Source of the DNA: Octopus vulgaris
Lineage: Eukaryota
Length of the DNA stretch: 64,000 nucleotides
Assembly (NCBI GenBank): GCA_951406725.2
Contig: OX597815.1
Location: 127,162,001 to 127,226,000 of the forward strand
Direction: 5' to 3'
The translations under genes were made by a program, and so were the position numbers. Under the pieces are notes generated by a model. That model searched no databases. It saw only the letters and a list, made by a program, of their open reading frames with translations, and was not told the origin of the DNA. How positions within the stretch are numbered: the first letter of the stretch is position 1; every line of letters starts with the position of its first letter. Below, in pieces: positions 2,591-57,928 of this stretch.

Positions 2591-2683
2591 TATATTGTGA
2601 AATTTGATTTAATACTAAATTGAATTTTACCCTGTAAGTTTGGAGTTATACTCCCTAATATTATTATTATTATTATTATTATT

Positions 2684-5271
2684 CAGTAGTTTTATTTTTA
2701 TAGCGTGCTTTCACTTCACTACCAAGCACAGTTCTGTGTGCCTTGGGTATGTGTTGTGATTTGTTGTGATGCTCTGATGGTTATTGTATGGAAAGTGTTC
2801 TGTGTAAGATGTGTGCAGTACCTAGTAGTGCAATTTTCTGTATGTTATATGTGTTTGTAAGTCCTGGTGTTTTTGTTATGTATTTGTCTAAATATTTTTT
2901 TATCATGCCTAATGCACCTACTATGATAGGAATTGTTTCTGTTTTCAGATTCCACATTCTAGTTACCTCTATTTCCAGGTGTTTGTATTTTGAGAGTTTC
3001 TCCATTTCTTTTAGAGACACGTTGTCATCTGCCGGTATTAATACATCAATTAGAAAGCATTTTTTTCTTCATGATCTCTGACAACTATATCTGGTCTGTT
3101 GGCCTTAATTTCTCTATCTGTGTGTATCGGCATATCCCAGAGTATGGTTGCTTTCTCATTTTCTGTGACCTTTTCTGGTGTGTGCCTATACCATCTTTTT
3201 TCTGTTGTTATTCCATAATGTTGGCATAGCTTCCAATGTATGTAGGTTCCAACTCTGTCATGTCTGTGAATATATTCCTTCTTAGCCAGGACTGGGCAGC
3301 TAGAGATAATATGATTTATTGTTTCTTGTCCATCTCCACATATTCTGCAGTTACTTGTAATATTTCTTTTCATTACATGTTTTTGGTAATTTCTGGTGGG
3401 GAGGCTTTGGTCTTGTGCTGCAATTAAAAATCCTTCTGTTTCTGCTTTGAGTCCTGAGCTTCTTAACCATTGCTGGGATTTTTCTTTGTCTATTTCTTTT
3501 GCGTTTAGTTTAGTCCAGTATTTACCATGAAGGGGCTTTTCTTGCCATCGTTTTAACATGGTACGTTGCTGTTCTATTTTTAGTTTGGATTTCATTTGTT
3601 TCATAGCTTTTGTTGCTTCTTCAGCTTCTTCTTCTTCTTCTTCTTCTTCATGTTTATTAGGTGGTATGATTTCTTGTTTGCATTTGTCAGCTTCCTTAAA
3701 TACTGAGAACAGTTTTTTGTTTTGCTCGTGTTTTGCCGCTATTTGTATCAGTTTTCCTTCCTTCTGAAGTAGATATTTTTGCAGTCCTATGGTGGTTATT
3801 TTATAGTAGTTTTCCAGCTGTATAAGGCCTCTACCACCTTCTATACGTTGTATATATATTCTTTCTATGTCAGATTTTGGGTGATGCATTCTAGATCCTG
3901 TCATTATTTTTCTTGTTTTCCTATCTATTTTGGTCAGTTCATTTCGTGTCCAGTTAAGGATATTGTAGCTGTAACTTATAACTGGGACAGCTAAAGTGTT
4001 GATACCTATTATCTTGTTTTTAGTATTGAGCACTGTTTTTAGTATTGATCTAACTCGTCTATAATATTCTTTTTTTATTTTCTCTTTCATTTGTGTGTGT
4101 TGTGTCTTATCTAGTTCATGGATTCCTAAGTATTTGTAAGTTTGGCTTTGGTCTAATTCTTTTATTTCATTGGTTTTATCTAGTGTGATGTTGCTACTCT
4201 TAACTAGTTTTCCTCTTTTCATGGTTACTTTGGCGCATTTTTTAATCCAAATTTCATATCTATTTCTTTGGTAAATCCATGAACTGTCTTTAATAGTGTT
4301 TCCAGCTGTTTGTCATTTGCAGCGTATAGTTTTAGGTCATCCATATATAAAAGGTGGCTGATCATTTTGCCATAACATTTGTATCCGCATCCAGTTCTAT
4401 TTAGCATATCAGATAGAGGTGACAGTGCCAAGCAGAAAAGGAGTGGAGAGAGCGTGTGTCCCTGGAATATTCCTCTTCTAATGGGGATGTCTTTGGTTTT
4501 CATGAGTCCCTCTTTTGTTTGGAGGTGTAGGACTGTTTGCCATTTATTCATAGAGTGCTCTATGAATTTTATGATTGTTGGTGCTACTTTGTTAATAGCT
4601 AGTGTTTCGAGGATCCATGTGTGGGGGATGCTATCAAACGCCTTTTTGTAGTCAATCCAGGCCATACTGAGGCCTTTCTTCTTTCTGTGGCTGTCTTCAG
4701 TTATGGCTTTATTAATCATTAGTTGATCTTTACAGCCATATGAGCCTTTGCGGCATCCTTTCTGCTCTTCTGGGAACAGTTTGTTTTCGTCCAGGTGCTT
4801 GTTCAACCTTTGCGATATCACTGCAGTAAATGCTTTGAACATAGTAGGGAGTCAGGTTATTGGTCTGTAGTTTTCTGGTGTTGCTGTCTCATTTGATTTG
4901 GGAATTAAGATGGTTTTCCCCTTCGTGAGCCATTCAGGCATTGTCTCTGGCTCTGCTAGTATGCTGTTAAAGTTTTCAGCCAGCTTTTTGTGCATTCCTC
5001 TTAGATATTTCAACCAGAAGTTGGGGATCTTGTCATGCCCAGGTGCCTTCCAGTTGCTTAGTCTTTGCAGTGCCTGGGTGACCTCTTCAGTTGTTATGGG
5101 GGTCCAAAGTTGTTCAGATGCAGAGTTTGTTATTTTGATACTCCTTTTATTTGGTTGTTCGTTCGCCGACCATGTTTCTCTCCAGAATTCTTCCAATTCT
5201 TCTGCCGTTGGTGCTGCAGTGACTTCTATTTTATTTTTGCCAAGTTCTTGGTAGAACTTTTTGGGGTTGGA
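2684..5271 (-). mobile_element. R4/Dong-clade LINE (RT plus restriction-like endonuclease), 5'-truncated, frameshifted
   Basis: ORFs 4852..5346, 4225..4842 (YMDD), 3050..4222 (CRIC..H..C zinc motif, RHD, RPDIV) and 2781..3020; (TTA)n on both sides, the known Dong-type microsatellite target. Confidence 0.92.
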
Positions 5272-16584: not shown

Positions 16585-16796
16585 CTGAAATTAAGTTTAA
16601 AATTATTTCATTTTATCTTCAATTCATTGTAAAATATAATTCATGTACACAGTATTACATTTCTATTTTTCCCAGGTGAAGAATGAAAGGAAACTGATAC
16701 AAATAGTGGTATGATAAACTGTACAACAGACCAGTATGAAAATATTAGGGTTATTAAAACAGTAATGTGTATGGATGTATTTATATATATATATAC

Positions 16797-16827
<31 letters not shown>

Positions 16828-16893
16828 CGTTTAAATATTTGTTGTGCAAGATTTTTTATGTGAAGTCGTGTGTTGAAACAGATATTGTTATAT

Positions 16894-17280
16894 TTCGGAA
16901 TGGTCATATTGCCAGTTTAGCCAATAAAAACACACGCACTATATATTTGGTGTTATTTTGCTTCAGTGATATTTATTTTTTACATTAATCTTAATCTTAT
17001 TTCGGCCAAAGTTCTTTCGTCACACTCCTGTGACCGCATCAGTGGTCCTTTGTTTTCTTCTCACTTACTTGTGTCTCTCCTTACTAACCGTCGTAAGGAG
17101 AGACGCAAGTAAGTGAGAAGAAAACAAAGGACCACTGATCGGTCACAGGAGTGTGACGAAAGAACTTTGGCGAAATAAGATTAAGATTAATGTAAAAAAT
17201 AAATACACTGAAGCAAAATAACACCAAATATATAGTGCGTGTGTTTTTATTGGCTAAACTGGCAATATGACCATTCCGAA
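16894..17280. repeat. Long palindrome (arms 16894-17084 and 17093-17280, 8-nt loop), probably Penelope-type inverted terminus
   Basis: Arms of about 190 bp are reverse complements with about 4 differences; flanked by (AT)n. Confidence 0.9.
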
Positions 17281-17289
17281 TAAATATAT

Positions 17290-17369
<80 letters not shown>

Positions 17370-17852
17370 CATATATTTTTATACCTATACATATACACAC
17401 TGTAAAGTTGCTGGTGTTAAGAAGGGTATCCAGCCATAGAAACCATAGTCCTATGGCTTGTCAGATCCTGTCAAACTATTCAACAAATGCTGGCATAAAA
17501 ACTGGATGTTAAATGATGATAATTATATCCACATACATCATCAAAGCAGTCTATCAAAGGGGAAGTGTTATGGAAGAAACCTGAAAAGACCCACATGACA
17601 GAAGGTGAACTAATCTATAACAATAATTAAGAACTAATTGAAATGTCAGGTAGTATTTGACAAGTGTTAGTTTGATCGTGTTGGTTTAACAGTTGGTAGT
17701 TTAACAGTGACTAGCAAGTATCACACCTACGCTCAAGTTTTACAGAGTGCATTCTGTGTTAACGAATATTTCTGCGATAGTTTAAGATAACCACAACTAA
17801 CTATTTATTTGTATATTATCATTTCACACCAGATGTGTATAACCACATCATA

Positions 17853-17944
<92 letters not shown>

Positions 17945-18573
17945 TTATATATAAAAAACTGACAATGTGTGTCTGTCTGTCTGTGTGTTTCCCTAAAACT
18001 TGAGAACTACACAACCAATTTCATTCAAATTTTACACATGCCTTACTTAGGGTCCGGGGAGTGTCATCAGCAAAAACATTTTGAACTTTTTGCCTAGGGC
18101 GAGCCTACAGCAATATCATATCTTCTCCACTACGATTCCCTAAAACTTGAGAACTACACAACCAATTCCATTCAAATTTTACACATGCCTTACTTAGGGT
18201 CCATGTAGTTTCATGGGCAAAAAAATGTTCAACTTCTTGACTAGAGCGAGCCCATAGCAATATCATATCTTCTCCACTATATCAGTATTACATGTTAAAA
18301 GTGAAACAAAATGTTTCTCTATTTTATGTCAGACACTTTCACTTTAACAATGAAAATAATAATACCAATTGAATTATATGTAGTAAGTAATAATTAAAAT
18401 CAAACTGAAGTATAATATAATCGTAACATAACAAAAGTAAAAATAGCAATTGGTATAAAATTGCATCAATGATTTGAACTTGAATAAGTGGTTTCACATG
18501 AATGGTAATAAATTAAAAATAAAATTAGCGTGCAGAAATGGAATAGTCCAGATGGATAATAAAAAATTAAATT

Positions 18574-18627
18574 AAAGGAAAGACTATTGTCTAGAAAGTA
18601 TACAATGTAGAGAAAAAAGATTTTCAC
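18574..18627 (+). pseudogene. Left half of the split Tx1-like ORF1 (target of the array)
   Basis: Translates KGKTIV*KVYNVEKKDFH and joins in frame to NMAESTFEKCL at 30159. Confidence 0.7.
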
Positions 18628-18851
18628 ACCTGGCTCCAAGCTAATTGCGTTTATTAGTAAGTTTATATATTTTTGCTCTCATAGTATTATCTCTGTTTTC
18701 TATATTGTCTGTCTACCTGTTTTGTTTATTGTTGTTTAACTGAAGAAGTCAGCCTTCGCGCGAGGACTTCGCGTTGGTGTTCCCCCCTCCGTGGGGGAAA
18801 ACTACAATTAATTTGGAAATTCCAAAGGCTTGTTAAAGCCATTTGTTCAAG

Positions 18852-20230
18852 ATGGAGTCCCCCATCTCTTATTCGCCTGTGACGAGCGAGGACGAATACC
18901 CGGCGTTGTCGCCAGGAAAAAAAGAGGCGTTGTCGCCAAGGAAAAAAGAGGCGTTGACGCCTGAAGAAAAAAGAGGCGGCGTCGCCCAAGAAAATAGAAA
19001 AACCAATACCAGCATCAACTCCAGCGAAAAAATTCGCTGAAGTAGCTGGGAAAAAGATTAAAACAATAAATATTGAAAATCTGGAAAAATTTGCAGACAG
19101 TGTAAAGAAAGAGGGCACAGAGGTGACTGTGGTCACAAACATACAGAAACAAGACGATATAGAGAAGAAAAGAATTATATATAAAACCTACAACACAGCA
19201 ACAAGAATGATACAGAAAATCGAGGAAAAAAAATAGAGTTTTGTCTGAAACCGATAATGGACAAAATAACCTACATAAACAGAGGAAAAAGATACGGCAC
19301 AGTGGAGGTGCGTTTTACCACTGAAGAGATGGCGAAAAAACTATCGATGGAGACGATCAAAGCAGAAAACATTGTTTTATTACCATTATATAGAGGAAAG
19401 CGGACGTCAAAAATCACAATGAACAACATACCGCCAGAAGCAGATGCAGAATGTCTGGTGGCAGCAGTGATGGTAGGCCTGGAGGAAAAAATAAACATCC
19501 TCCAGGCCACAGTGGAAGAAGAGGAGTTCTGGAAAGGACAAAAAATAGTGATAGCCATTCAGGCGGAGGCACAAACACTGGAAGAAATTCCAGAAACGGT
19601 AAAAATCAGCGAAGATGAAAAAATAACAGTTTTCGTGGAGGGCAGGAAGCCGAGGTGCTTCGGCTGCGGCAAGAAGGGTCATGTAAGGGCGGAATGCCAA
19701 CCCCAACCCAAACCGCTGGAAGCACCGAAGCCAAGAGAAAAAGAAGAACATGTGTCACCAGAAGCAGCGTCGGACGGCCCAGAAGGGAAGACCGAAGGTG
19801 TGGAGGTGACGGTGACAACAGAACCAGCGGCGGAGGAGAATAAGAGCGAGGATAAGATAAATGAGGAGGGGTGGAAAAAAATTACCGAAAAAAAAGAAGA
19901 AAAACGGAAACCACCCCTCCCAGAATAATTTTAAAAAAGAAAAGAGAGACAATGGACTCATATATGGCCGTAAAGGCAGCAAATAGCAGACTAGGAAACG
20001 TGTTGGCTGCTATGGCCAAAGTGGAGAAAGTGGAAAAGAAAAATGACTTTGTAATCTACAGAATAGGCCGGAAGGATTACGGGCGGATAAAATCCGAATT
20101 CTTCCACGACGTAGGCCCACTTAGATTGGAGGTGACATCTCCACATATATTCGAGGGCCTACGTCAGACTCCCCCACGAGGCCCAGAAAAAGAGTTAGAA
20201 GAACAAGAGAAAACCGAACCACTGATATAA
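18852..20230 (+). pseudogene. Unit 1 ORF1 (gag-like, CFGCGKKGHVRAEC), frameshifted
   Basis: ORFs 18843..19040, 19257..19928 and 19871..20230 are consecutive pieces; the shifts fall in A-runs and may be sequencing errors. Confidence 0.85.
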
Positions 20231-20239
20231 AGGTAAGTA

Positions 20240-23200
20240 ATGGATTGCATTTATGTTGGTTGTTTGAATGTGCGCGGCCTGGGAGCAGGCTGGAAGCAAG
20301 ATCGCTTCCTGCATGATATCAGGTCGCGTAATTTAGATGTTATTGTTGCTACAGAAACCCGGTTAGAGGGGCCAAGAGGTCTGCTCCCGCTGTTTGACGG
20401 CTACGAGAGTTTTTTCTCTCCTGGCAGACCTACTGGCGGAAGTGGGGTGTTGGTCCTAATAAAAAGAAACCGGGTTTCTGAGAAAAAGTTAATTTTTGCA
20501 GATCCAGAAGGCAGGCTGGTCGTCATGGATTTGACGTTCAGTAATGGTAAAGTTATCAGACTGGTTGCAATTTACGCACCCAACCATACAGGGCAAAGTG
20601 ATTATTTTCGTGAACTAGAAAACTTTCTTGGTACTTCGCATTCATTAGTTGTGCTAGGAGACTTTAACACAATTTGCAAAGCAAATGTAGATTGTGTTGG
20701 CTCGCGTCCAGATAGAAAAGGTAACAGTGGCTTCATGGAACTGGTAAGCCGCTTTGAGCTAGCAGATCCTTATAGGCTGGAATTTCCGAACGCTCCATTG
20801 TGGACATGGTCGAACAGCGACGGATCTTCCAGGTCATATTTAGATAGAATACTAATTAGAAAAGTAGACAGTAAAATAGCTAAGTGTCCACAGTTTTACC
20901 CGATCAGCTACAGTGATCATAAAATGGTCACTTGTAAGCTTGACATAGATAAGGTTAAAAATAGAGGATCCGGTTACTGGAAACTTAATACGTCCCTTTT
21001 GGCGATTAAGGAGTACAAAGACCGGATTAGGGACATAATTCTGAGGGCACTGTCTGGTACCATCATTAATAACAAATGGTGGTACGCCCTCAAACGAGCC
21101 ATCAAGTTCGAGTCAATTAGATATAGCATAGGAGTAGTGGCTAGAGAGGCTAGAAGGGAAACTACTCTAGTTAAGGAATTAGAGGAAGCCTTGAAAACTG
21201 GCTCTGCGGCTCAGGTGGCGTCCAAGAGAATGGTGTTAAACCAGCACCTCGAGGCCAAACACATGGGCTGCATTGTCAGGGCTAGAATCCGCCATATGGG
21301 ATGTGAAGGAATCAACGCCGCGAGATGGGCCCGAGTGGTGGAAGCACAGCATGGTAACGATGCCACGATTCGATCTTTGACGAACCAACAAGGTGAGTCG
21401 ATGAACGAACCCGAGGAGATGTGTGAGGCCTTTCAGGAGCACTTCGCTCAGCTTTTCGGTGAGTGCGGCGGACTGGATAGGAGGGGGGCCTTTACGGACC
21501 TACTCGACGGGCTGCCGCGCTTATCGGGGCAAGATGCGGAGGGCTGTGAAGGGCCAATCACGCCTGAGGAGGTGGTTGAGGCAATGGCGGACTGCGGCGC
21601 GGGCAAGGTGCCGGGTTTGGATGGTCTACCCTATGAGTTATATAAGAGTATGCCAGACTTGTTCAGGCACCTACAGGCGGAGGTTTATGCGAACTGGCAG
21701 CAGAACGGGCTTATACCCAGATCTGTACGCCGGGGAGTAGTGACACTCGTCAGAAGGGACCCGAGCAAGGGGGAGTGCATTGATAATTTCAGGCCCATCA
21801 CTCTGCTAAACACAGAGTTGAAGATTTTGGCCAAAGTGTTATCGAAAAGATTGGCGCGTGTCGCGGATGGTCTGATCAGGGAGGCACAGACATGTGCCGT
21901 TCCTGGCAGAACCATTCAGGATAATCTCCATCTTATGCGGTACACTATAGATGGGTTTAATAGTGATTCTGGCCAGGGTGGGGCACTGGTCCATTTAGAC
22001 CAATCTAAAGCTTTTGATAGGGTCGACCATCGTTACCTGGTATCTGCCCTGGCACAGTTCGGGCTGAGCCTTGGCTTCCTCAGGTGGAATATACAAATTT
22101 ACGATAACATCGACTCGGTAGATCGGGTGAACGGCTTCTTGTCGAAGCCGTTCAAAATCAAGCGCTCGGTTCGTCAAGGGTGTCCGCTCTCTCCGCTTTT
22201 GTTTGTGATGGCTCTTGAGCCATTACTGCGAAAACTGAGCGGCATCCCGAGACAGCCAGGTAGTGGAAAATCGGTGTCAGCGTACGCGGATGACATCACC
22301 ATCATTGTAACCGAAATGGACCACCTATGTAAAGTAGGCAAGGCCATAGAGGTTTACGAGACGGTGACAGGAGCAAAAGTTAATCGCGAAAAGTCAGTCG
22401 GCTTGCAACTCGGCACCTGGAGAGGCAAGTCGATGCCTCCTGACAGCGTCGTGGGACGTTGGACGGAGGGTCCGATTAAATTGCTAGGGGTCTGGTTCGG
22501 TCCAGACCTCCAAATAGAGAAGAATTGGGGCGAGGTATCGAGCAGGGTGGCTGCAGAAACCAAGACCTGGTCTTGGCGGTGGCTATCCCTGAAAGGGAGG
22601 GCGGAGGTGGCCAATGTGTTTATCGCATCGGTTATCACCTACCGCCTTTCCGTCGTTCCTTGCCCTGATTCGTGGTTGATCAAGTTGGAAAGACAGCTCT
22701 TCTACTTCTTGTGGAAGGGCGGGAAACCACTTGTGAAACGCTCTACTTGCTGTCAACAACCGTTAAAGGGTGGGCTAGGGATGCCTTGGCTGATGATGCG
22801 CAGACATGCGCTGAGGTTAAGACATCTGTAGCTCTACCTGGATGGGGAACGGGTGAGGTCTCCGCTAGCAAAACTGATGTTTCCCAAGTTCACTAGTTTC
22901 GGTGGATGGGAAACCTGGCTGAATCGTAGATCGAAACTTGGTACTTGGTACACGGAGTGTCGCAAGGCTCTCCTGCTATTCCGTCGCTCGGGCAACGCCT
23001 GCGGTGGGGGTTCCACCACATTCTTCTATAGAGGGTTGGTAGAGGCGGAATGTGAAGATACCTTGGGGGAAACCCTAGGTCTCGACGATAATCAGCTGGC
23101 CAGTCTATTCCGACGTACGTTCAAGCCGAGGACACTGGACAACTTCCAGAAGTCTCTGGCATGGCAATGCTACAGAGGAGCTCTACCTGTTCGGGATAAA

Positions 23201-23635
23201 CTCGCAAGGCATGGTGGCCAAGACAGTCCGATATGTCCAAGATGCGGGCGGGATAGGGAAACGGTCCTGCACGCTATTGTTCATTGTCCGGACGTGTCTG
23301 AGGTGTGGGTTTATGCCGAATAGCTGTTGTCAGGTACACGAAGAGTACAGCTGTCGACTGAGTCGATTACAAAAATTGACCCACCGGATTTCCTCGTGAA
23401 TGAAGGTAAGTTTCGTTTTCTCGTTGTAGTAGCAATTGCGAAAGAGGTGATATGGAAGACGAGAATGAAAGGTCTACAGTCAGGCAAGTTCATCTCCGGC
23501 CCTGGTTTGAGGAATTATTTCATCTTTCACCTGAAAAGGAAGATAGGGCTGGAGAGAATATGCCTGACTAGGAGAGTGTATGAAGAACGATGGGAAGATG
23601 TAGCACGAAAGTTGCGAGTGAATGATACAACATAA
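20240..23635 (+). pseudogene. Unit 1 ORF2 (APE endonuclease, reverse transcriptase, C-terminal zinc finger) with two in-frame TAG stops
   Basis: LNVRGL, ATET, GDFN, YLDRI, SDH; QGCPLSP, YADD; CPRC..ETVLHAIVHC; stops at 22829-22831 and 23321-23323. Confidence 0.92.
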
Positions 23636-23893
23636 ATGTAAGACCAAGCGTAACCAAAAGTAACAGTGGGGAGGCCGGGCTCGTGGGGTCCGAGCTAAAC
23701 CCGCACCCACTCCACCCGTAATGTCTTCCGGTCTGTTACATCATTCGATTTCTGTCCATTTATTGTAATTTCATGAAAATTTTAAAATTCGTTTTATTGT
23801 AAAAACCCATTCGTGTGTCTGACCCCATCATCAGATTGTATTGTCCCATCTATGTTCGCCCCTTGTGGGTAATAATAAAACAACCTGGCGGAA

Positions 23894-25809
23894 CGCAATC
23901 CACGTGTGTATTGAGTTACTTTGTATGTGAAAATTTGGAAAAAACTGTTAAAAAATTGGCAAAAATTGAATCGCGCGAGGCGTTTGCCGCTGCGTGTTTG
24001 AACCTTTTATAGAAGGTGTGTCAACCCGCAAGTCATGGAGAATTACGCGGGGGTCGCCACAACAAAAAGTGACGAGTCTCTTAGAATAAGAGAAGTGTTC
24101 TTTAGAAAAGAACAATTGAAGGAATACGAGAAGTTCGTCAAAAGGGAGGGTGACAGCGTGAAGCTGGTCCCGCCTGTTGAAACAATAGAGGAGAAAAATA
24201 ACAAGACGATAACGTATAGAACGCAAGATAGAAACACGAGAAAACTGGTGAGAGTGACGATTGAAGAAATAGAGAAATGTCTGGGGGACATCATGAAAAA
24301 AGCGACTTTTGTAGACAGAGGAAAGAAATATGGTACGGTGGAGGTGAGATGCGCAACAAAGGAAGTGGCGGCCTCATTGGCTTCCACTGTCCTGAAAGCC
24401 GAAAATTTCACTATGTGGCCGACGTATAAAGGAAGACGAGGGGTACGGGTAAGAGTCCCAAAGGTGCCCCCAGATATTAAAACAGAAATGCTGGTAACAG
24501 CCATTATTGGGGCAGCAAAGGAGGAAGTTGAAATAGGGTCAATCATGGAGACGAACGTTGTAAATTGGAAGGGATTCGGAGTAGAGCTGTGGCTGATGGC
24601 CACAATGGAAGACATCGAAAGGTTTCCCTTCCAAATAGAAATAGAAAACGAGAAAACAATTAGTGTAATAGTGGAAGGCAGAAAACCGAATTGCTACCTG
24701 TGCGGATCAAGAGGGCACATAAAAAAGGAATGTCCGCTGTATGAATTCACAGCGGAGCAAAAAGAGACACAAAGTGGAGAGAAGGAAAACGAACACGAAG
24801 GAAAGAACAGCGAAAACAAGGAAAAGGAAATAACGGAGAAACAACAAGAGAAGGGAAGTAACAGCGCACTGAAGGAAAATGAAAACAAAGGGAAGAAGAG
24901 AGTAGAAAAGGAGCAAAATTCACAGGGTGCAGAAGTAGTGGAGAAGGAGCCAAGGCAGAAGCAAGAGAAAGAAAAGGAAAGTACATTAAAGGAAAGAGAA
25001 AAAGCAGGAAAAGAACAAGAGAAGGAACAGAACCAAGAGAAAGGAAAATATGGTATGCAAAAAGGAAAAGAAACAACAGGAAAGGAACATAAGGCACAGG
25101 GTAGAGAGACGGCAGACAAAGAGCCAAAAAGACAAGAGAAGGAAAAAGAAAGAAGAGAAAGCAAAAAGAGAGAAAGAGAGAAACCGAGGGAGGAGAAAAA
25201 AGAGGAAGTAAGTCCTAAGAGAAAAACTAGAGAAAACGTAGGTACGAATAGAAAATTCAAATACTATGGAACGTTGATCCATCACAGGCACTGTGAGGAG
25301 ATGGAAGATTTAATAAACGTAACAAATGGATATACGTGTGTCAGGATGGGCACCGAATGGAAAGAAACAGGTGCACTCGTCCACGAGAACGACGCTGAGG
25401 CGTTCATCGAGGCAGCTGGCAAGAACGTGACAAAACATATGAAATGCCGACTTACAAGGTGGCCACGAACGATGGAAATTTACCAAGATTTGGTAGAGAT
25501 AATGGAGTATATATAAAAGAAAAGGTATTGTGAAAACTTTAATTTGGAAATGATAAGAAGAACTTAAAATTCTGAAAAAAAAAAAATGTTGAACTTTGTA
25601 AAATTTTTGAAATGTATGTTGAAAATGTGTAAAATGTTTTTATTTGGAAGATATTGTTGACGAATAAAAAACAAATGACGAAATGTAACCGCTCGATTTC
25701 GGGGATCGAGTGGGCATTACACCACATTGTACAAACTTCATAATTCATTATTCATTTTTCCCGATTGTATTGTCCCCTCTATGTTGGCCCCTTGTGGGTA
25801 ATAATAAAA
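23894..25809 (+). mobile_element. ORF1-only non-autonomous Tx1-related element, unit 2
   Basis: 5' end resembles unit 3; single ORF; last 47 bp match units 1 and 3 at 45/47; no RT. Confidence 0.88.
24035..25516 (+). CDS. Intact 493-aa Tx1-type ORF1 protein (conserved N-terminal block, CCHC knuckle, long K/E-rich region)
   Basis: RGKKYGTVEVR and VEGRKPNCYLCGSRGHIKKEC align with unit 1/3 ORF1; uninterrupted frame. Confidence 0.85.
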   Translation: MENYAGVATTKSDESLRIREVFFRKEQLKEYEKFVKREGDSVKLVPPVETIEEKNNKTITYRTQDRNTRKLVRVTIEEIEKCLGDIMKKATFVDRGKKYGTVEVRCATKEVAASLASTVLKAENFTMWPTYKGRRGVRVRVPKVPPDIKTEMLVTAIIGAAKEEVEIGSIMETNVVNWKGFGVELWLMATMEDIERFPFQIEIENEKTISVIVEGRKPNCYLCGSRGHIKKECPLYEFTAEQKETQSGEKENEHEGKNSENKEKEITEKQQEKGSNSALKENENKGKKRVEKEQNSQGAEVVEKEPRQKQEKEKESTLKEREKAGKEQEKEQNQEKGKYGMQKGKETTGKEHKAQGRETADKEPKRQEKEKERRESKKREREKPREEKKEEVSPKRKTRENVGTNRKFKYYGTLIHHRHCEEMEDLINVTNGYTCVRMGTEWKETGALVHENDAEAFIEAAGKNVTKHMKCRLTRWPRTMEIYQDLVEIMEYI

Positions 25810-26036
25810 CAACATGGCGGAACGCAAATCGCGTGTGTAGTGAGTTTTTACAATTTTCCTTAGTGTATATTTTCTACGTTATATTATACTGTGTGTCTAT
25901 TTGTCTTTGTTTATTGCTGTACATCTGTTGAAGTCAGCCTTCGTGCGAGGACTTCGTGGTGGTGTTCCCCCCTCCGTGGGGGAAAAATATCAGTTATCTT
26001 GGATTTACCAAGGGCTTGTTAAGCCAGTTGTTCGAG

Positions 26037-27351
26037 ATGGAATCCCCAATCTCATATTCTCCCGTGACTAGTGAAGAAGAATCTCCGGCGGTGTCGCCAA
26101 AGAAAAAAGAGGCGGTGTCGCCAAAGAAAAAGAGGCGGTGGCGCCAAAGAAAAAAACCCCTGCACCAGCACCAGCACCAGCGAAAAAATTCTCAGAAGTA
26201 GCTGCTAAGAAAATTTAAAAAATAAACGTCGAAGACTTAAAGAAATATGCGGACTGTGTTACAAAAGAGGGCACGGAAGTGACAGTGGTCACAAACGCCC
26301 AAAAACATGAAGAAATCGAAAAAAGAAGAATAATCTATAAGACCTTTAATACGACAACCAAAATGATACAAAAAATTGAGGAAAAAAAATCGAGAATTGT
26401 TTAAAACCATTAATGGACAAGATCACATACATCAACAGAGGAAAGAGATACGGCACAGTAGAGGTGCGTTTCACAACAGAGGAGATACCTAAAAAACTGT
26501 CTATGGAGCCAAAAAATGCAGAGAACATTGTTCTCCTCCCCTCGTATAGAGGAAAAAGAACATCAAAAATCACGATGAATAACATTCCGCCAGAGGTAGA
26601 TGCCGAATGTCTGGTGGCAGCAGTCATGGTAGGCCTGGAGGAAAAAATAAACATCCTCCAGGCCACAGTAGAGGAGGAGGAATTCTGGAAAGGGCAGCGG
26701 ATAGTAATAGACATTCAGGCAGAAATTCAAACACTGGAGGAGATTCCAGAAACTCTAAAAATAAGTGAAGAAGATAGAGTAACAGTTTTCGTAGAGGGCA
26801 GAAACCCGAGGTGCTTCGGCTGCGGCAAGAAGGGTCATGTAAGGGCGGAATGCCAACCCCAACCCAAACCGCAGGAAGCACCTCAGCCAGGTGGAAAAGA
26901 AGATGAAGTGTCACCAGAAGCAGCGCCGGGCGGCCCAGAAGGGACGACTGAAAGTGTGGAAGTGACAGAGGCAGCAGAACCAGCGGCAGAGGAAAAAAAG
27001 AGCAATGAGGAGGGGTGGTCAAAAATCACCAGGAAAAAAAGAAAAACGGAAACCACCCCTCCAAGAGTGATCCAAAAGAAGAAAAGAGAGTCGATGAACT
27101 CATATATGGCCGTTAAGGCATCAAACAACAGACTCGGGAACGTGTTGGCAGCTATGGACAAAGTGGAAAAAATAGGAAAAATGAATGACTATATAGTTTA
27201 CAGAATAGGCCGGAAGGATTACGGGCGGATAAAGTCCGAATTCTTTCATGACGTAGGCCCGCTCAGAATGGATTTAACATCTCCATATATATTCGAGGGC
27301 CTACGTCAGACTCCCCCACGAGTCCCAGAAAAAGAGATAAACAAAGAATAA
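26037..27351 (+). pseudogene. Unit 3 ORF1
   Basis: MESPISYSPVTSE start; ORF 26413..27351 with CCHC knuckle; frameshifts and stop upstream. Confidence 0.85.
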
Positions 27352-27387
27352 AAAGAAAAAACCGAACCACTGATATAAAGGTAAGTA

Positions 27388-29917
27388 ATGGATTACATTT
27401 ATGTTGGTTGTTTGAATGTGCGCGGCCTAGGAGCAAGCTGGAAGCAAAGTCGCTTCCTGCATGATATCAGGTCGCGTAATTTAGATGTAATTGTTGCTAC
27501 AGAAACCCGGTTAGAGGGACCAAGAGGTCTACTCCCGCTGTTTGACGGCTACGAGAGTTTTTTGTCTCCTGGCAGTCCTACTGGCGGGAGTGGGGTGTTG
27601 GTCCTAATAAAAAGAAACCGGGCCCGAGTGGTGGAAGCTCAGCATGGTAACGATGCCACGATTCGATCTATGACGAACCAACAAGGTGAGTTGATAAACG
27701 AGCCCGAGGAGATGTGTGAGGCCTTTCAGGAGCACTTCGCTCAGCTTTTCGGTGAGTGCGGCGGACTGGATAGGAGGAGGGCCTTTAGGGACCTACTCGA
27801 CGGGCTGCCGCGCTTATCGCGGCGAGATGCGGAGGGCTGTGAAGGGCCAATCACGCCTGAGAAGGTGGTTGAGGCAATGGCGGACTGCGGCGCGGGCAAG
27901 GCGCCGGGTTTGGATGGTCTACCCTATGAGTTATCTAAGAGTATGCCAGACTTGTTCGGGCACCTACTGGCGGAGGTCTATGCGAACTGGCAGCAGAACG
28001 GGCTTATACCCTGATCTGTGCGCCGGGGAGTAGTGACACTCGTCAGAAGGGACCCGAGCAAGGGGGAGTGCATTGATAATTTCAGGCCCATCACTCTGCT
28101 AAACACAGAGTTGAAGATTTTGTCCAAAGTGTTATCGAAAAGATTGGCGCGTGTCGCGGATGGTCTGATCGGGGAGGCACAGACATGTGCTGTTCCTGGC
28201 AGAACCATTCAGGATAATCTCCTTCTTATGCGGTACACTATAGAGGGGTTTAATAGTGATTCTGGCCAGGGTGGGGCACTGGTCCATTTAGACCAATCTA
28301 AAGCTTTTGATAGGGTCGACCATCGTTACCTGGTATCTGCCCTGGCACAGTTCGGGCTGAGCCTTGGCTTCCTCAGGTGGAATATACAAATTTACGATAA
28401 CATCGACTCGGTAGATCGGGTGAACGGCTTCTTGTCGAAGCCGTTCAAAATCAAGCGCTCGGTTCGTCAAGGGTGTCCGCTCTCTCCGCTTTTGTTTGTG
28501 ATGGCTCTTGAGCCATTACTGCGAAAACTGAGCGGCATCCCGAGACATCCAGGTAGTGGAAAATCGGTGTCAGCGTACGCGGATGACATCACCATCATTG
28601 TAACCGAAATGGACCACCTATGTAAAGTAGGCAAGGCCATAGAGGTTTACGAGACGGTGACAGGAGCAAAAGTTAATCGCGAAAAGTCAGTCGGCTTGCA
28701 ACTCGGCACCTGGAGAGGCAAGTCGATGCCTCCTGACAGCGTCGTGGGACGTTGGACGGAGGGTCCGATTAAATTGCTAGGGGTCTGGTTCGGTCCAGAC
28801 CTCCAAATAGAGAAGAATTGGGGCGAGGTATCGAGCAGGGTGGCTGCAGAAACCAAGACCTAGTCTTGGCGGTGGCTATCCCTGAAAGGGAGGGCGGAGG
28901 TGGCCAATGTGTTTATCGCATCGGTTATCACCTACCGCCTTTCCGTCGTTCCTTGCCCTGATTCGTGGTTGATCAAGTTGGAAAGACAGCTCTTCTACTT
29001 CTTGTGGAAGGGCGGGAAACCACTTGTGAAACGCTCTACTTGCTGTCAACAACCGTTAAAGGGTGGGCTAGGGATGCCTTGGCTGATGATGCGCAGACAT
29101 GCGCTGAGGTTAAGACATCTGTAGCTCTACCTGGATGGGGAACGGGTGAGGTCTCCGCTAGCAAAACTGATGTTTCCCAAGTTCACTAGTTTCGGTGGAT
29201 GGGAAACCTGGCTGAATCGTAGATCGAAACTTGGTACTTGGTACACGGAGTGTCGCAAGGCTCTCCTGCTATTCCGTCGCTCGGGCAACGCCTGCGGTGG
29301 GGGTTCCACCACATTCTTCTATAGAGGGTTGGTAGAGGCGGAATGTGAAGATACCTTGGGGGAAACCCTAGGTCTCGACGATAATCAGCTGGCCAGTCTG
29401 TTCCGACGTACGTTCAAGCCGAAGACACTGGACAACTTCCAGAAGTCTCTGGCATGGCAATGCTCTACCTGTTCGGGATAAACTCGCAAGGCACAGTGGC
29501 CAAGACAGCCCGATATGTCCAAGATGCGGGCGGGATAGGGAAACCGTCCCGCACGCTATTGTTCATTGTCCGGACGTGTCTGAGGTGTGGGTTTATGCCG
29601 AACAGCTGTTGTCAAGTACACGAAGAGTACAGCTGTCGACTGAGTCGATTACAAAAATTGACCCACCGGATTTCCTCGTGAATGAAGGTAAGTTTCGTTT
29701 TCTCGTTGTAGTAGCAATTGCGAAAGAGGTGATATGGAAGACGAGAATGAAAGGTTTACAGTCAGGCAAGTTCATCTCCGGCCCTGGTTTGAGGAATTAT
29801 TTCATCTTTCACCTGAAAAGGAAGATAGGGCTGGAGAGAATATGCCTGACTAGGAGAGTGTATGAAGAACGATGGAAAAATGTAGCACGAAAGTTGCGAA
29901 TGGATGTTACCACATAA
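27388..29917 (+). pseudogene. Unit 3 ORF2, endonuclease-deleted, multiple stops
   Basis: Stops at 28012, 28861 and 29122; 11-bp deletion near 29463; YADD retained. Confidence 0.9.
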
Positions 29918-30157
29918 ATGTAAAACCAGACGAAACCAAAGTATCAGTGGGGAGGCGGGGCTCGTGGGGTCCGAGCTAAACCCACTCCCACTCCATCCGT
30001 AATGTCTTCCGGTCTGTTCTCCATTCGATTTTTTATATTTTGTAATTTTTTGTAAATTTTTTAAATTCGCTTTGTTGTAAAACCCATTCGTGTATCTGAC
30101 CCCATCATCAGATTGTATTGTCCCATCTATGTTCGCCCCTTGTGGGTAATAATAAAA

Positions 30158-30475
30158 CAACATGGCGGAAAGCACCTTCGAAAAGTGTCTTGGTGCGACC
30201 ATGAAAGGTATCTATTCAGAGGCGGTAAATTCGCCACAATAGAAGCAAGGTTTGAGTCAACGGAGTGTGCAAGGGAGTACTCGACTCAAACTTGCAAAGT
30301 GGGAATATTTTATTTTTACCTTTATATCTGAGACATAGGACATCCCGGAAAAAAATTTTTAATGCCACCCCCCCCGCCCGAAGTAGAGGTAGGCTGGATT
30401 GTAGCCACACTTCTATACAAGAGGGAGGACAAGATACAATTGATCGAAATTACAAGAGACGGGCTAACAAATCCA
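30158..30475 (+). pseudogene. Right half of the split Tx1-like ORF1
   Basis: NMAESTFEKCLGATMK / RGGKFATIEARF / NILFLPLYLRHRTS / PEVEVGWIVATLL align with ORF1 of units 1-3. Confidence 0.8.
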
Positions 30476-30748
30476 GTCTGTTATATATTTTGAGTATTGT
30501 TATCACTAGCGATATCAGGATATAACTTTGTATTTTGTATTTTATGTGTAGATGTATATATATAGATGTACATGTAATATGTACACATATATATACACAT
30601 ATATACATGCACTAGCACTATGACCCGGCAACGACGGGTCTTTAATGCTAGTATATATATATAAAGGTATTTTTTTACTTCTATAACAATTGACTATGAC
30701 ACCTTCCTATACAATCTGATTAACCATACTTATAATATCTTATGCAGT

Positions 30749-43425: not shown

Positions 43426-46400
43426 CACTGAAACAGTAAAACACGAAGACAAACGTAACATTCCCAACAAACATGATGTAAACAAAAAACAACAAACCCA
43501 GATCGTAAGGATGCATAATAATACACGACAAACAGCAAGCCAAAACATGACAAACAAACATATAAATAAGAAACAAAGCGACACAAATCTAAAACCTGGA
43601 AACAATGCAGGGGAGCCTAATGATTATGATAATATAAAAAGTAAAATAATCAAAGAACTGAAAACCACAGAGCTCAAAATGGACCACCAACCATACCTCC
43701 CAAAAATCAAAATAGACAAAACAACAACACCAATTATAAACAGCAAAAACCTAGCTGTCATGGAACTGATAGCCACTGAAACAAAAAGCGATATCACTGA
43801 GCTAAATGACTTAGTATACGCAGCAGCCACTGCAGCCACAAAAGAACCTGGATACTCACTCAAACCCATCCAAATAGGAGCACCACCACCCAAACAAACC
43901 CTGTGGATAAATAACATCCAAAACAAAATACAAAAAATGAGAAAAGATCTGTCGATTCTTAATGAAATCAGTAGACAATCAACGCTACTGAGCAACAAAA
44001 AGAAAACAAAAATACTCCACAAATATAACATCACAGAAAACGATTTACCTGAGATAAAAAGAAAGCTGAAGCAAGATATCCTTGCCAAAGCACACAGGAT
44101 CCACCGGTATGAGAAACGCCAGCGCTTCTTTGAACAAAACAAAAATTTCAACTCCAACCCCAAAAAGTTCTACCAAGAACTTGGCAAAAATAAAATAGAT
44201 ATCACTGCAGCACCAATGGCAGAAGAAATGGAAGGATTCTGGAGAGAAATATAGTTGGCAAACGAACAACCAAAAAAAAAAGGAGTATTAAAACAACAAA
44301 ATCAGCATCTGAGCAACTTTTGACCCCCATAACAACTGAAGAGGTCACCCAGGCACTGCAAAGACTAAGCAACTGGAAGGCACCTGGGCATGACAAGATC
44401 CCCAACTTCTGGTTGAAATATCAAACAGGAATGCACAAAAAGCTGACTGAAAACTTTAACAACATACTAGCAGAGCCAGAGACAATGCCTGAATGGCTCA
44501 CGAAGGGGAAAACCATCTTAATTCCCAAATCAAATGAGACAGCAAAACCAGAAAACTACAGATCAATAACCTGTCTCCCTACAATGTACAAGGCATTTAC
44601 TGCAGTGATATCGCAAAGGTTGAACAAGCACCTGGACGAAAACAACCTGTTTCCAGAAGAGCAGAAAGGATGCCGCAAAGGCTCATATGGCTGTAAAGAT
44701 CAACTAATGATTAATAAAGCCATAACTGAAGACAGCCACAGAAAGAAAAAAGGCCTCAGTATGGCCTGGATCGACTACAAAAAGGCGTTTGATAGCATCC
44801 CCCACACATGGATCCTCGAAACACTACCCATTAACAAAGTAGCACCAACAATTATAAAATTCATAGGGCACTCTATGAATAAATTGCAAACAGTGCTACA
44901 GCTCCAAACAAAAGAGGAACTCATGAAAACCAAAGCCATCCCCATTAGAAGAGAAATATTCCAGGGAGACACACTCTCTCCACTCCTTTTCTGCTTGGCA
45001 CTGTCATCTCTATCTGATATGCTAAATAGAACTGGATGCGGATATAAATGTTACGGCAAAATAATCAGCCACCTTTTATATATGGATGACCTAAAACTAT
45101 ACGCTGCAAATGACAAAAAGCTGGAAACACTATTAAAGACAGTTCGTGGATTTACCAAAAAATAGATATGAAATTTGGATTAGAAAAATGCGCCAAAGTA
45201 ACCCTGAAAAAAGGAAAACTAGTAAAGAGTAGCAACATCGCACTAGATAAAACCAATGAAATAAAAGAATTAGACCAAAGCCAAACTTACAAATACTTAG
45301 GAATCCATGAACTAGATAAGACACAACACACACAAATGAAAGAGAAAATAAAAAAAGAATATTATAGACGAGTTAGATCAATACTAAAAACAGAGCTCAA
45401 TACTAAAAACAAGATAATAGGTATTAACACTTTAGCTGTCCCAGTTATAAGTTACAGCTACAATATCCTTAACTGGACACTAAATGAACTGACCAAAATA
45501 GATAGGAAAACAAGAAAAATAATGACAGGATCTAGGATGCATCACCCAAAATCTGACATAGAAAGACTATATATACAACGTATAGAAAGTGGTAGAGGCC
45601 TTATACAGCTGGAAAACTACTATTAAATAACCACCATAGGACTGCAAAAATATCTACTTCAGAAGGAAGGAAAACTGATACAAATAGCAGCAAAACACGA
45701 GCAAAACAAAAAACTGTTCTCAGTATTTAAGGAAGCTGACAAATACAAACAAGAAATCATACCACCTAATAAATATGAAGAAGAAGAAGAAGAAGAAGAA
45801 ACAACAAAAGCTATAAAACAAATGAAATCCAAACTAAAAATAGAACAGCAAAGAACCATGATAAAACGATGGCAAGAAAAGCCCCTTCATGGTAAATACT
45901 GCACTAAACTAAATGCAAATAAATAGACAAAGAAAAATCCCAGCAATGGTTGGGAAGCTCAGGACTCAAAGCAGAGACAGAGGGATTTTTAATTGCAGCA
46001 CAAGACCAAAGCTTCCCCACCAGAAATTACCAAAAACATGTAATGAAAAGAAATATAACAAGTAACTGCAGAATATGTGGAGATGGACAAGAAACAATAA
46101 ATCATATTATCTCTGGCTGCCCAGTCCTGGCTAAGAAGGAATATATTCACAGACATGACAGAGTTGGAACCTACATACACTGGAAGCTATGCCAACATTA
46201 TGGAATAACAACAGAAAAAAGATGGTATAGGCACACACCAGAAAAGGTCACAGAAAACGAGAAAGCAACCATACTCTGGGATATGCCGAAACACACAGAT
46301 AGAGAAATTAAGGCCAACAGACCAGATATAGTTGTCAGAGATCATTAAAAAAAAATGCTTTCTAATTGATGTATCAATACCGGCAGATGACAATGTATCT

Positions 46401-46732
46401 CTAAAAGAAATGGAGAAACTTTCAAAATACAAAGACCTGGAAATAGAGGTAACCAGAATGTGGAATAAAAAAAACAGAAACAATTCCTATCATAGTAGGT
46501 GCATGAGGCATGATAAAAAAATATTCCGATAAATACATAACAAAAACACCAGGACTTACAAACACATATAACATACAGAAAATTGCACTACTAGGCACTG
46601 CACACATCCTACGCAGAACACTTTCCATACAATAACCATCAGAGCATCACAACAAATCACAGCACATACCCAAGGCACACAGAGCTGCGCTCGGTAGTGA
46701 AGTGAAAGCATGCAATAAAAATAAAACTACTG
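43425..46732 (+). mobile_element. R4/Dong-clade LINE in (TAA)n, same family as 2684-5271
   Basis: RT QGDTLSP/YMDD, CCHC and RPD endonuclease motifs; (TAA)n on both sides. Confidence 0.93.
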
Positions 46733-46733
46733 A

Positions 46734-46792
<59 letters not shown>

Positions 46793-48109
46793 CAACAACA
46801 ACAACAACAAATAATAATAACAACATTGAAAGAAATGAAGCTAGTATGCTCCATTGGATGTGTAATGTCAGTGTGTGTGCATAACAGAGTGCAAGCGCTC
46901 CTGAGATAACAGTTGGACATAAGAAGCATCAGATGTGGTGTGCAAGACAGATGACTGCACTGATATGGTCATGTGATGTGTATGGATGAGGACAGCTGTG
47001 TGAAGAAATGTTGCACTCTAATGATGGAGGGAACCTGTGGAAGTGATAGACCCAGGAAGACGTAGGATGAGGTAGTGAAGCATAATCTTCAAATGCTGGG
47101 CCTCACAGAAACAATGACAAATGACCAAGACTTTGACGATATGCCATGCTTGAGAAGACCCAAGTGAGACCATAGTCATGGCTGATGCCAATGTCGTTTA
47201 AGTGGCCCATTAAAAGCACCCTTCAATCACTGGGCAATATGCTGTGTTTGTGAAAACCTGTTGAACTGAATGAAATCATAGTCGTGACCAATACCAATGC
47301 CATCTGACTGGCATCCATGCCGGTGGCATATAAAAAGCAACATTCATGCATTGGACCCCATGGAGGCAGTGTCAGGTGACCAAGACCCTTGGCAATATAC
47401 AGTGCTTATGTTTACCTGTCAAGCTAATTAAGATCATAATCGTGAATGATACTGGTGTCAGGTCAATGGCACCCATCCAGTAGCACGTAAAAAGCACCCA
47501 CTACTCTCTCAGAGTGGTTGGCATTAGGAAAGGCATCCAGTAGTAGAAACCCTGCAAAATCAGACTGGAACCTAGTGCAGCCCTGCAGCTCACCAGTTTT
47601 CAGTCAAATCGTCCAACCCATACCAGCATGGAAAGCAGACGTTAAGTGATGATGATGATGAACAGTATATGCCAAAGTGATGCTGGGGTACAAATATGGA
47701 AAAAGCAATATACTCATCATGACAACGCACCTGATAAGGGTACACCAATTATATGCATCACAACCAATTGTGTGGAACATGGTGACCTCATTTCACAATA
47801 GACAGTACATGGTCTTGCAGATGGAACCAAGTTAGAATTTTTTTCAGATCAATTAGTCCTTCCTGCTCAAAAGTTCCTATATAAGGGTGGTCTAAGGATG
47901 ACAAATAAAAATACCTTTGTTTCCAGGGGTGAATTATTCAAGCCCCTAAAGAATCCATCTCAAAACATGCTTATGATGCTCCCCCATTACTCCGCTTGTG
48001 ATCAGAGATGCACATATCGTCAGCCACTATGGACATGCTCACCTGATTTAGGTCAAACAACTAACAAGCAAATTTGTGGTTTTGAGCAGAATATCTGGTG
48101 TTGGTGTTG

Positions 48110-48141
<32 letters not shown>

Positions 48142-48153
48142 GTCATTATTATT

Positions 48154-57432: not shown

Positions 57433-57928
57433 CTGCAAAAAAAAGCAAAATATTAAGAAAATATAATTCAGCAAATATTTTTTTCATTAGTTTTCATATC
57501 AATTCATTCTATGATAAAGATGACGTATTTCAGAAAACAATTCCCCCCTACTACTGCTACTACTACTACTACAACCAACGGTCTCTGCTACTACTGCTAT
57601 TATGAACAACGGTCACTTTCACGATTACAGCCAACAGTAATACGATTGTAGTCAACGCACAAGACAGCCATTATGCTCCCGCCCACCCACAAAACACCAT
57701 CACGTGGACTCTGTTGAGACTAGTAAGAAACACTTATGAACTTTTTTATTACACTTAACTTTTTAACATATTTTTGATAAGGTTTGTGTTTTCAAGAAGA
57801 ACTGAAACATGTAAAATCTATAAGAAAATTAAAATTTATCTTATATAGTGGCATTTTCAAACTTTTATAAATATAAACCCACTTGTATGCCACCTACACT
57901 TTTTATAAATATATATATTTATATATAT

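Follow-up and report, generated by a model that had tools for sequence, protein, structure and literature searches.

The 64,000-nucleotide stretch of Octopus vulgaris DNA analysed in this work (hereafter the window; C2:127162001-127226000 of the 2.8-Gb assembly, to whose genomic loci labels such as L014 also refer) contains three head-to-tail units, located at 18628-30159 by self-comparison of the window, which appear to be Tx1-like long interspersed nuclear elements (LINEs) and a non-autonomous partner. The array interrupts a non-autonomous Helitron (17942-30651), a repeat with at least 2,110 copies in the genome. We consider it probable that these Tx1-like LINEs, together with partners coding for the first open reading frame (ORF1) only, prefer one position in this high-copy Helitron, which carries a dead LINE fragment, and that the position is measured, as seems likely, from the sequence upstream of it.

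Structure of the interrupted locus

The features of the locus are given below (carets mark cuts and junctions; TSD, target-site duplication).

17942-18549, + strand: Helitron 5' arm, with an A^TC start, a TCTG microsatellite and a 144-bp internal duplication
18550-18623, + strand: left part of the captured Tx1-like piece, in which a ~570-bp internal deletion removes most of the 5' region; upstream sequence ending in AAAAGA precedes the hot spot
18624-18644, + strand: 5' leader brought in by the element; it resembles the target on both sides of the nick (equivalent to 18627^18628) in degenerate form, so that an inherited version stands in place of the left TSD
18628-23882, + strand: unit 1, Tx1-like LINE with ORF1 (frameshifted) and ORF2, the latter with an apurinic/apyrimidinic endonuclease (APE), a reverse transcriptase (RT; YADD) and a zf-RVT domain
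22829-22831, + strand: stop codon in unit 1
23883-25811, + strand: unit 2, ORF1-only and non-autonomous (493 aa, CCHC knuckle), starting 5' with a 16-nt TSD/leader
25812-30159, + strand: unit 3, internally deleted Tx1-like LINE, starting 5' with a 16-nt TSD/leader; last base 30159
30160-30464, + strand: right part of the captured ORF1 piece, with the right TSD (30160-30175) and a 7-nt deletion frameshift; homology to free-standing relatives stops at ...RDGP
30465-30651, + strand: Helitron 3' arm, with a hairpin (30622-30640) and CTAG (30648-30651), followed by T

The sequence-only reading of the window had proposed that the two flanks of the array form one interrupted site and that uninterrupted copies should be sought. 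Such copies exist, the empty site having 892 exact matches in the genome (as a 26-mer), and both flanks are confirmed as the halves of one repeat: among the best 30 matches to 30159-30475, 21 are uninterrupted, with the left flank directly upstream, and 9 (the window included) have an element tail in front.

The ends of this repeat are those of a Helitron. Where the 5' end could be located, A^TC was found in 17/20 and 9/9 copies (the V1 and V4 sets described below gave no 5' end by that pattern), and TAG^T closed the 3' end in 24/24, 14/15, 5/5 and 5/5 copies (48/49 overall). No TSD of the Helitron itself is visible in L014, L019 and L021, and most flanks are TA microsatellites. Non-autonomous animal Helitrons are described with 5' TC, a 3' hairpin plus CTRR, and insertion at A^T (PMC4344730).

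Four natural variants were distinguished. V1, of ~1.7 kb, holds 951 bp of a Tx1-like 5' region and ~185 ORF1 codons; V2, the type present in the window, is V1 minus ~570 bp of the captured piece; V3 (206 empty matches) has a further loss of ~310 bp that begins 7 nt before the hot spot; and V4 (51 matches) is wholly missing the captured piece. V4 is likely the form before capture, because its join coincides exactly with the point where homology to the free-standing relatives stops.

The units themselves were classed from their coding capacity. ORF2 matches PF03372, PF00078 and PF13966, and its best match in the PDB is human L1 ORF2p (E 2e-61, vs 1e-23 for R2). PF00098 lies above cut-off in the unit 2 ORF1, and a CxxCxxxxHxxxxC pattern is legible by eye in units 1 and 3 (Pfam gave no match for the unit 1 piece). 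A CCHC zinc knuckle in ORF1 is a feature of the Tx1 clade, and the ORF2 domain set combined with a CCHC-bearing ORF1 suggests that the units are Tx1-like; we use this label instead of Tx1 because no named Tx1 reference stands among the 120 listed RT matches. A protein from Argonauta is the sole match that carries a species name. Unit 2 shares with the unit 1 LINE a ~50-bp 3' tail. An intact ORF2 of 1,117-1,132 aa is present at 5/31 array loci; the frames at L268, L278 and L282 measure 1,132 aa.

The window holds further elements besides the array. An inverted pair bearing an RT (2656-5271 and 44153-46761) is 95% identical, a Tx1-like remnant (47800-50200) is 64% identical to the ORF2 of the units, and an RT frame of 835 aa lies at 57877-60384. 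Just 5' of the Helitron there is a 620-bp palindromic (inverted-repeat) element (16776-17397), and the same repeat is found upstream of L120.

The insertion site and its captured ORF1 sequence

At the hot spot as well as at dispersed insertions with resolved TSDs, the element 3' ends consist of AAAA plus 2 nt (CA/TC/CC), followed by the target; therefore 30159 is a base of unit 3, and 30160 is the first base of target beyond the array. In the empty site, GATTTGAAC^AC(A/C)TGGAGGAAAGC, which encodes FE-H-(M/L)EES, the cut splits the His codon after its first base. The exact codon register and the (H)NMAE junction motif of the sequence-only reading are thus not those of the target: the register counted an element base, and the 'A' of NMAE is an allele of one of the 30 best copies, namely the window itself. 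On the left side, 18624-18644 is an element-borne leader and not clean target (an identical TCAC change occurs at L070). Likewise, an ORF1 reading that continues past the junction (to RGGKF) is obtained only across a frameshift: all 21 empty V2 copies hit a stop just past the site (20 with the scored 7-nt deletion, 1 unscored by pattern), and the frame is kept across the A-run in only 3/21 of them. A separate idea, that the junction motif is a YY1-like promoter motif at the element 5' ends, was dropped, since this motif shows free variation and corresponds to the target.

That the array interrupts ORF1-like sequence of a different Tx1-like family was borne out. A natural undeleted copy of the captured ORF1 scores 118-145 against the array ORF1s, compared with shuffle maxima of 51-61 (300 shuffles), and the captured ORF1 is 33-41% identical to the array ORF1s vs 50-80% to 13 free-standing relatives (its nearest library relatives have 57% and 56% identity). 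Nevertheless, an open frame over the ~185 codons was found in 0/51 scored copies, and all the best 30 matches of the 5' part of the captured piece sit within the Helitron. The captured ORF1 piece is a dead passenger of a non-autonomous Helitron, and nothing functional is disrupted.

The free-standing relatives, to which 18/20 protein-search loci belong (all in the same orientation), are decayed, none exceeding 84% identity to the captured piece. An element tail at the site was seen in 0/18 of them, from a protein query that favours uninterrupted copies. Conversely, the followed-up insertions at the hot spot (site A) run on into the Helitron in 24/24 and 20/20 cases (some loci overlap) and in none into a native ORF1; the insertions thus do not lie in copies of the other family that are intact or stand on their own, as parasitism on a live relative's ORF1 would require. 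No intact donor of the ORF1 piece was found in the genome, which gave Helitron-borne copies and decayed relatives, a low-copy donor being possible; among longer proteins there was likewise no match, which is weak evidence.

It had also been claimed that the family's own ORF1 is immune. The inserted units and a remnant at 54.9 kb do lack the motif at the equivalent ORF1 position, and the array's own ORF1 lacks the upstream stretch as well. No special immunity is needed, however, because the free-standing relatives show no insertion either; simple divergence, shared with these relatives, is sufficient.

Two observations concern related elements. Four free-standing relatives (L291, L292, L297, L299) have a common upstream region with CCAAT-like and TATA-like boxes, missing from the Helitron-borne piece, which could be either their own promoter or a different target. 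At C25:23.51 Mb (L032/L033/L260), two 5'-truncated copies lie in the ORF1 3' end of another related LINE, with a 166-bp duplication; the position differs from the hot spot and the case is single.

Target preference and the position of the cut

The tail 17-mer has 422 exact matches in the genome (280, plus 142 ending in C). We tallied by hand the 155 listed tails from C1 to C7:100.1 Mb, classed by eye from 18 bases and using exact patterns only: 63 are array-internal, 43 lie at site A, 5 at site B, 5 at site C, ~28 are dispersed, 7 belong to short interspersed nuclear elements (SINEs) and 4 are chance matches. Accordingly, ~48/81 terminal junctions (~59%) fall within this Helitron, where a single sequence type in >20% of flanks has been used to define a target-specific LINE (PMC4494074). 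Occupancy of site A is ~5-11%, with ~105 filled sites (extrapolated from 74/100 listed) vs 892 exact empties or 2,110 copies.

Since arrays vary in content and order from locus to locus, they represent independent insertions. Taking the 20 site-A loci at the head of the list, we find a full-length final unit at 18 and a truncated one at the other 2. By comparison, 14 of 20 TSD-resolved dispersed insertions are shorter than 600 nt (10 of these being too short for assignment to LINE or SINE), with TSDs of 16-19 bp at most of the 20 and a weak cut preference for C^R. Many dispersed copies are 84-89% identical to the window units, vs 92-96% for full LINEs at site A.

Three further observations touch on target use. 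Site C is a second recurrent target, in another repeat, with three loci (C3:38.18 Mb, C3:136.22 Mb and C4:135.93 Mb; L194-L197, L080) that have different arrays and their own leader type. A SINE-like repeat of ~170-235 bp (L228, L236, L238, L245, L248) combines a head that looks tRNA-like by eye with the LINE-unit 3' tail and TSDs of 13-19 bp; it is likely mobilised by this LINE group, and is dispersed, not site-specific. An additional ORF1-only family of ~1.7 kb, with a different tail and head (L268, L271, L274, L277, L279), uses the same Helitron zone at several upstream offsets.

The deletion variant V3 separates what lies upstream of the cut from what lies downstream. Its sequence differs from 7 nt before the cut onward, yet 16 V3 loci are filled (12 with both junctions seen), and the cut is again made 7 nt past the shared AAAAGAAGA, at ACA^ATT, although a C^R is available one base away. 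The coding motif is not required for targeting, because V3, which lacks it, is still filled. Moreover, the site determinant likely lies upstream of the cut, because the 7-nt distance is kept in two variants with different downstream sequence. As 6 of the filled V3 loci had been chosen by their left flank, the unbiased tests are the junctions between a tail and the B sequence (the downstream sequence of V3) and the B-type left junctions. Ten exact tail-B junctions have left flanks of V3 (6), V4 (1), a V3-like remnant (2, probably one duplicated locus) and one unresolved type. The B site in its normal context (2,110 matches, ~10x commoner than V3) accounts for 0/7 resolved junctions, with a binomial P of ~3e-6 for 6/7 in V3; similarly, V3 provides 7 of the 27 B-type left junctions and the normal context none. 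This zone is also used by a sister tail type, at the same cut and at offsets ~10, 25 and 35-40 nt upstream.

The left ends of the units carry a record of former targets. Full-length units open with 20-25 nt of degenerate target (the leader), and at three unrelated sites (L199, L232, L261) a fresh TSD is followed by a leader, which therefore travels with the RNA. At such sites the leaders extend only 3-9 nt upstream of the nick; within arrays, the leader types (A, B, C) match the site types, and the units are separated by target copies of TSD length (16 nt). The sister tail type sits to the left of existing units, with the upstream target kept (L268, L271). As separate observations, a full ORF1-only unit occurs on C11 at an unrelated site, with an 18-19-bp TSD and then a site-A leader (L199, L100, L102, L106), the three near-identical C11 loci being probably a segmental duplication; and C7:100088874-100146817 has at least 11 consecutive tails ~1.78 kb apart, with site-A ends 40-60 kb further, which points to a very long array of apparently ORF1-only units.

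Discussion

In the mechanism that we propose, a Helitron of ~0.8 kb would first have picked up 951 bp from the 5' end of a Tx1-like element and afterwards multiplied. The ORF2 protein would recognise the A-rich stretch ~8-40 nt upstream and nick 7 nt past its end, while transcripts starting just upstream of the element would provide each RNA with a 20-25-nt copy of its former target. This copy could anneal at a new site and complete the 5' junction, as proposed for the transcript-borne target sequence of R1 and R2 (PMC2718515, PMC3774820). With the left junction remaining a target, arrays would grow leftward in the window's family; R1 arrays, for their part, form by insertion into the 5' TSD (PMC2718515, PMC3774820).

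Several observations weigh against this interpretation. L188 is inserted at the B sequence of a V4 copy, without the A-rich upstream stretch, and site C (3 loci) has in common with site A only an A5 tract and TTT. About one third of the terminal junctions are dispersed, and 10 dispersed tails of at most 30 nt are indistinguishable from SINE tails. Finally, the tree of the Helitron arms (67 rows; L136 and L148 had no match and rows with short arm matches were dropped) is a star that orders only the nested V3 group and does not place V4 before V1. Contigs from four runs merely guessed to be RNA did not bridge the junction between Helitron and element, and were not used as evidence.

Some of these points would be explained if the choice of site were guided by RNA, with a read-through TSD at the RNA 3' end and the inherited 5' leader pairing with the target, so that a lineage returns to its parent's site type and the endonuclease supplies only weak C^R nicks. 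The weak cut consensus at the 20 TSD-resolved dispersed sites, the association of leader types with site types within arrays, and L188 (where a B-type element occupies a B sequence that has no upstream stretch) are in line with this possibility, and 3' pairing with the target has been reported for SART1 and R1 (PMC7265360). We still judge it unlikely, given that 3' pairing alone cannot separate V3 from the tenfold commoner B site in its normal context, where the downstream sequence is identical, and that the leaders found at unrelated sites cover no more than 3-9 nt on the upstream side of the nick.

In a rival model, the family evolved its cut so as to inactivate ORF1 in a competitor LINE that was still alive, the Helitron having inherited the site later as a decoy. 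The hot spot and its upstream determinant do lie inside ORF1-coding sequence of a different family, and all that is left of this family is decayed copies (no more than 84% identity), as expected if it had been driven out. On the other hand, 0/44 checked site-A insertions continue into a native ORF1, 0/18 free-standing relatives are filled, no intact donor was found, the cut lies inside a codon and the motif is dispensable; in addition, many dispersed copies are more diverged than the site-A LINEs, which fits a preference that arose after the spread of the Helitron. Such a history thus seems very improbable. Of the element-versus-element parasitism put forward by the sequence-only reading, there remains a preferential insertion, at a fixed base, into another mobile element and within ORF1-derived sequence of a different family; the disruption of a functional ORF1 (0/51 frames open) does not. 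For the LINEs, the benefit is likely a harmless, self-multiplying landing site and not damage to a competitor, and the simplest reading would be a safe haven, as described for Tx1L in Tx1D (PMC1950540).

It is hardly credible that there is no targeting at all and that one or a few filled Helitrons were copied along with their cargo: although Helitrons carry passengers, and duplication accounts for three near-identical loci on C11 and for two on C29, array content and order differ by locus, both site alleles and all of V1-V4 are filled, 5'-truncated units have their own TSD (L267), and there are at least three tail types.

Returning to the preference for the Helitron position, a broader scenario can be put forward, which we regard as less likely than not. 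In this scenario, capture of a LINE fragment by the Helitron may have given rise to a landing pad produced in bulk, all within a few percent of sequence divergence. Several previously promiscuous LINE lineages may have switched to it by recognising DNA on the upstream side of the cut, beyond the usual footprint of the endonuclease, with full-length copies now surviving mainly there. If true, target specificity would have been caught arising de novo, in a three-way loop from LINE to Helitron and back to LINE.

How APE-type LINEs gain or switch target preference is an open question, and most known targets are old and fixed. The octopus target is young, its four natural variants separate upstream from downstream sequence, and the determinant is directly testable because intact ORF2 copies exist. 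A warning for annotation also follows: more than 2,000 of the genome's 'Tx1 ORF1' matches represent passengers of Helitrons and not copies of a LINE.

Comparison with known systems

The ORF1-only units resemble HAL1 ('half-L1'), an ORF1-only non-autonomous derivative with a LINE tail; unlike it, they have a Tx1-type ORF1 with a CCHC knuckle, prefer a site and interleave in arrays.

Tx1 families that target piggyBac, Mariner, Harbinger and long terminal repeat (LTR) elements, with TSD-separated tandems, are already published (PMC4494074). The named cases are Xenopus Tx1L in Tx1D, crocodilian Tx1-Mar and SINEU in Mariner-N4_AMi, Tx1-9_AMi in Harbinger, and Tx1-8_Crp and Tx1-4_AMi in LTR elements (PMC4494074, PMC1950540). 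As far as these accounts describe them, the Tx1L/Tx1D and crocodilian cases are like the octopus system in that an APE-type LINE favours a single position within some other transposon, often a non-autonomous one, that a TSD lies between tandem copies, and that non-autonomous partners use the same site. They differ in that the octopus host is a Helitron and the site lies within a captured fragment of a related LINE, that several tail types are spread over a ~40-bp zone with differing offsets, that the determinant is apparently upstream of the cut, and that the partners are ORF1-only. In the literature covered, neither a Helitron nor a captured LINE fragment was found to serve as a target; these octopus families and their targets may already be recorded in Repbase, in subscription journals or in supplements, which were outside its scope. 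One paper lists L1-Tx1 and Helitron families of an octopus, with no nesting or targets in its main text (PMC13282606). What is new here is that the host is of another class, that the site stems from a captured relative, and that a natural deletion serves as a test.

Drosophila R1 also forms TSD-separated arrays, and the target-bearing transcripts of R1 and R2, proposed to anneal and prime the second strand, surface at off-target insertions (PMC2718515, PMC3774820). Unlike these elements of the ribosomal DNA, as the same sources present them, the octopus elements target a young transposon, their leaders have diverged into many alleles and their specificity is partial (~60% of terminal junctions). 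Lastly, the lepidopteran Hel-2 shares with the octopus Helitron the 5' TC, the 3' hairpin with CTRR, the insertion at A^T, (CTGT)n near the 5' end and acquired passenger DNA (PMC4344730), whereas the octopus passenger, in contrast to the published description of Hel-2, is a LINE 5' end turned insertion hot spot.

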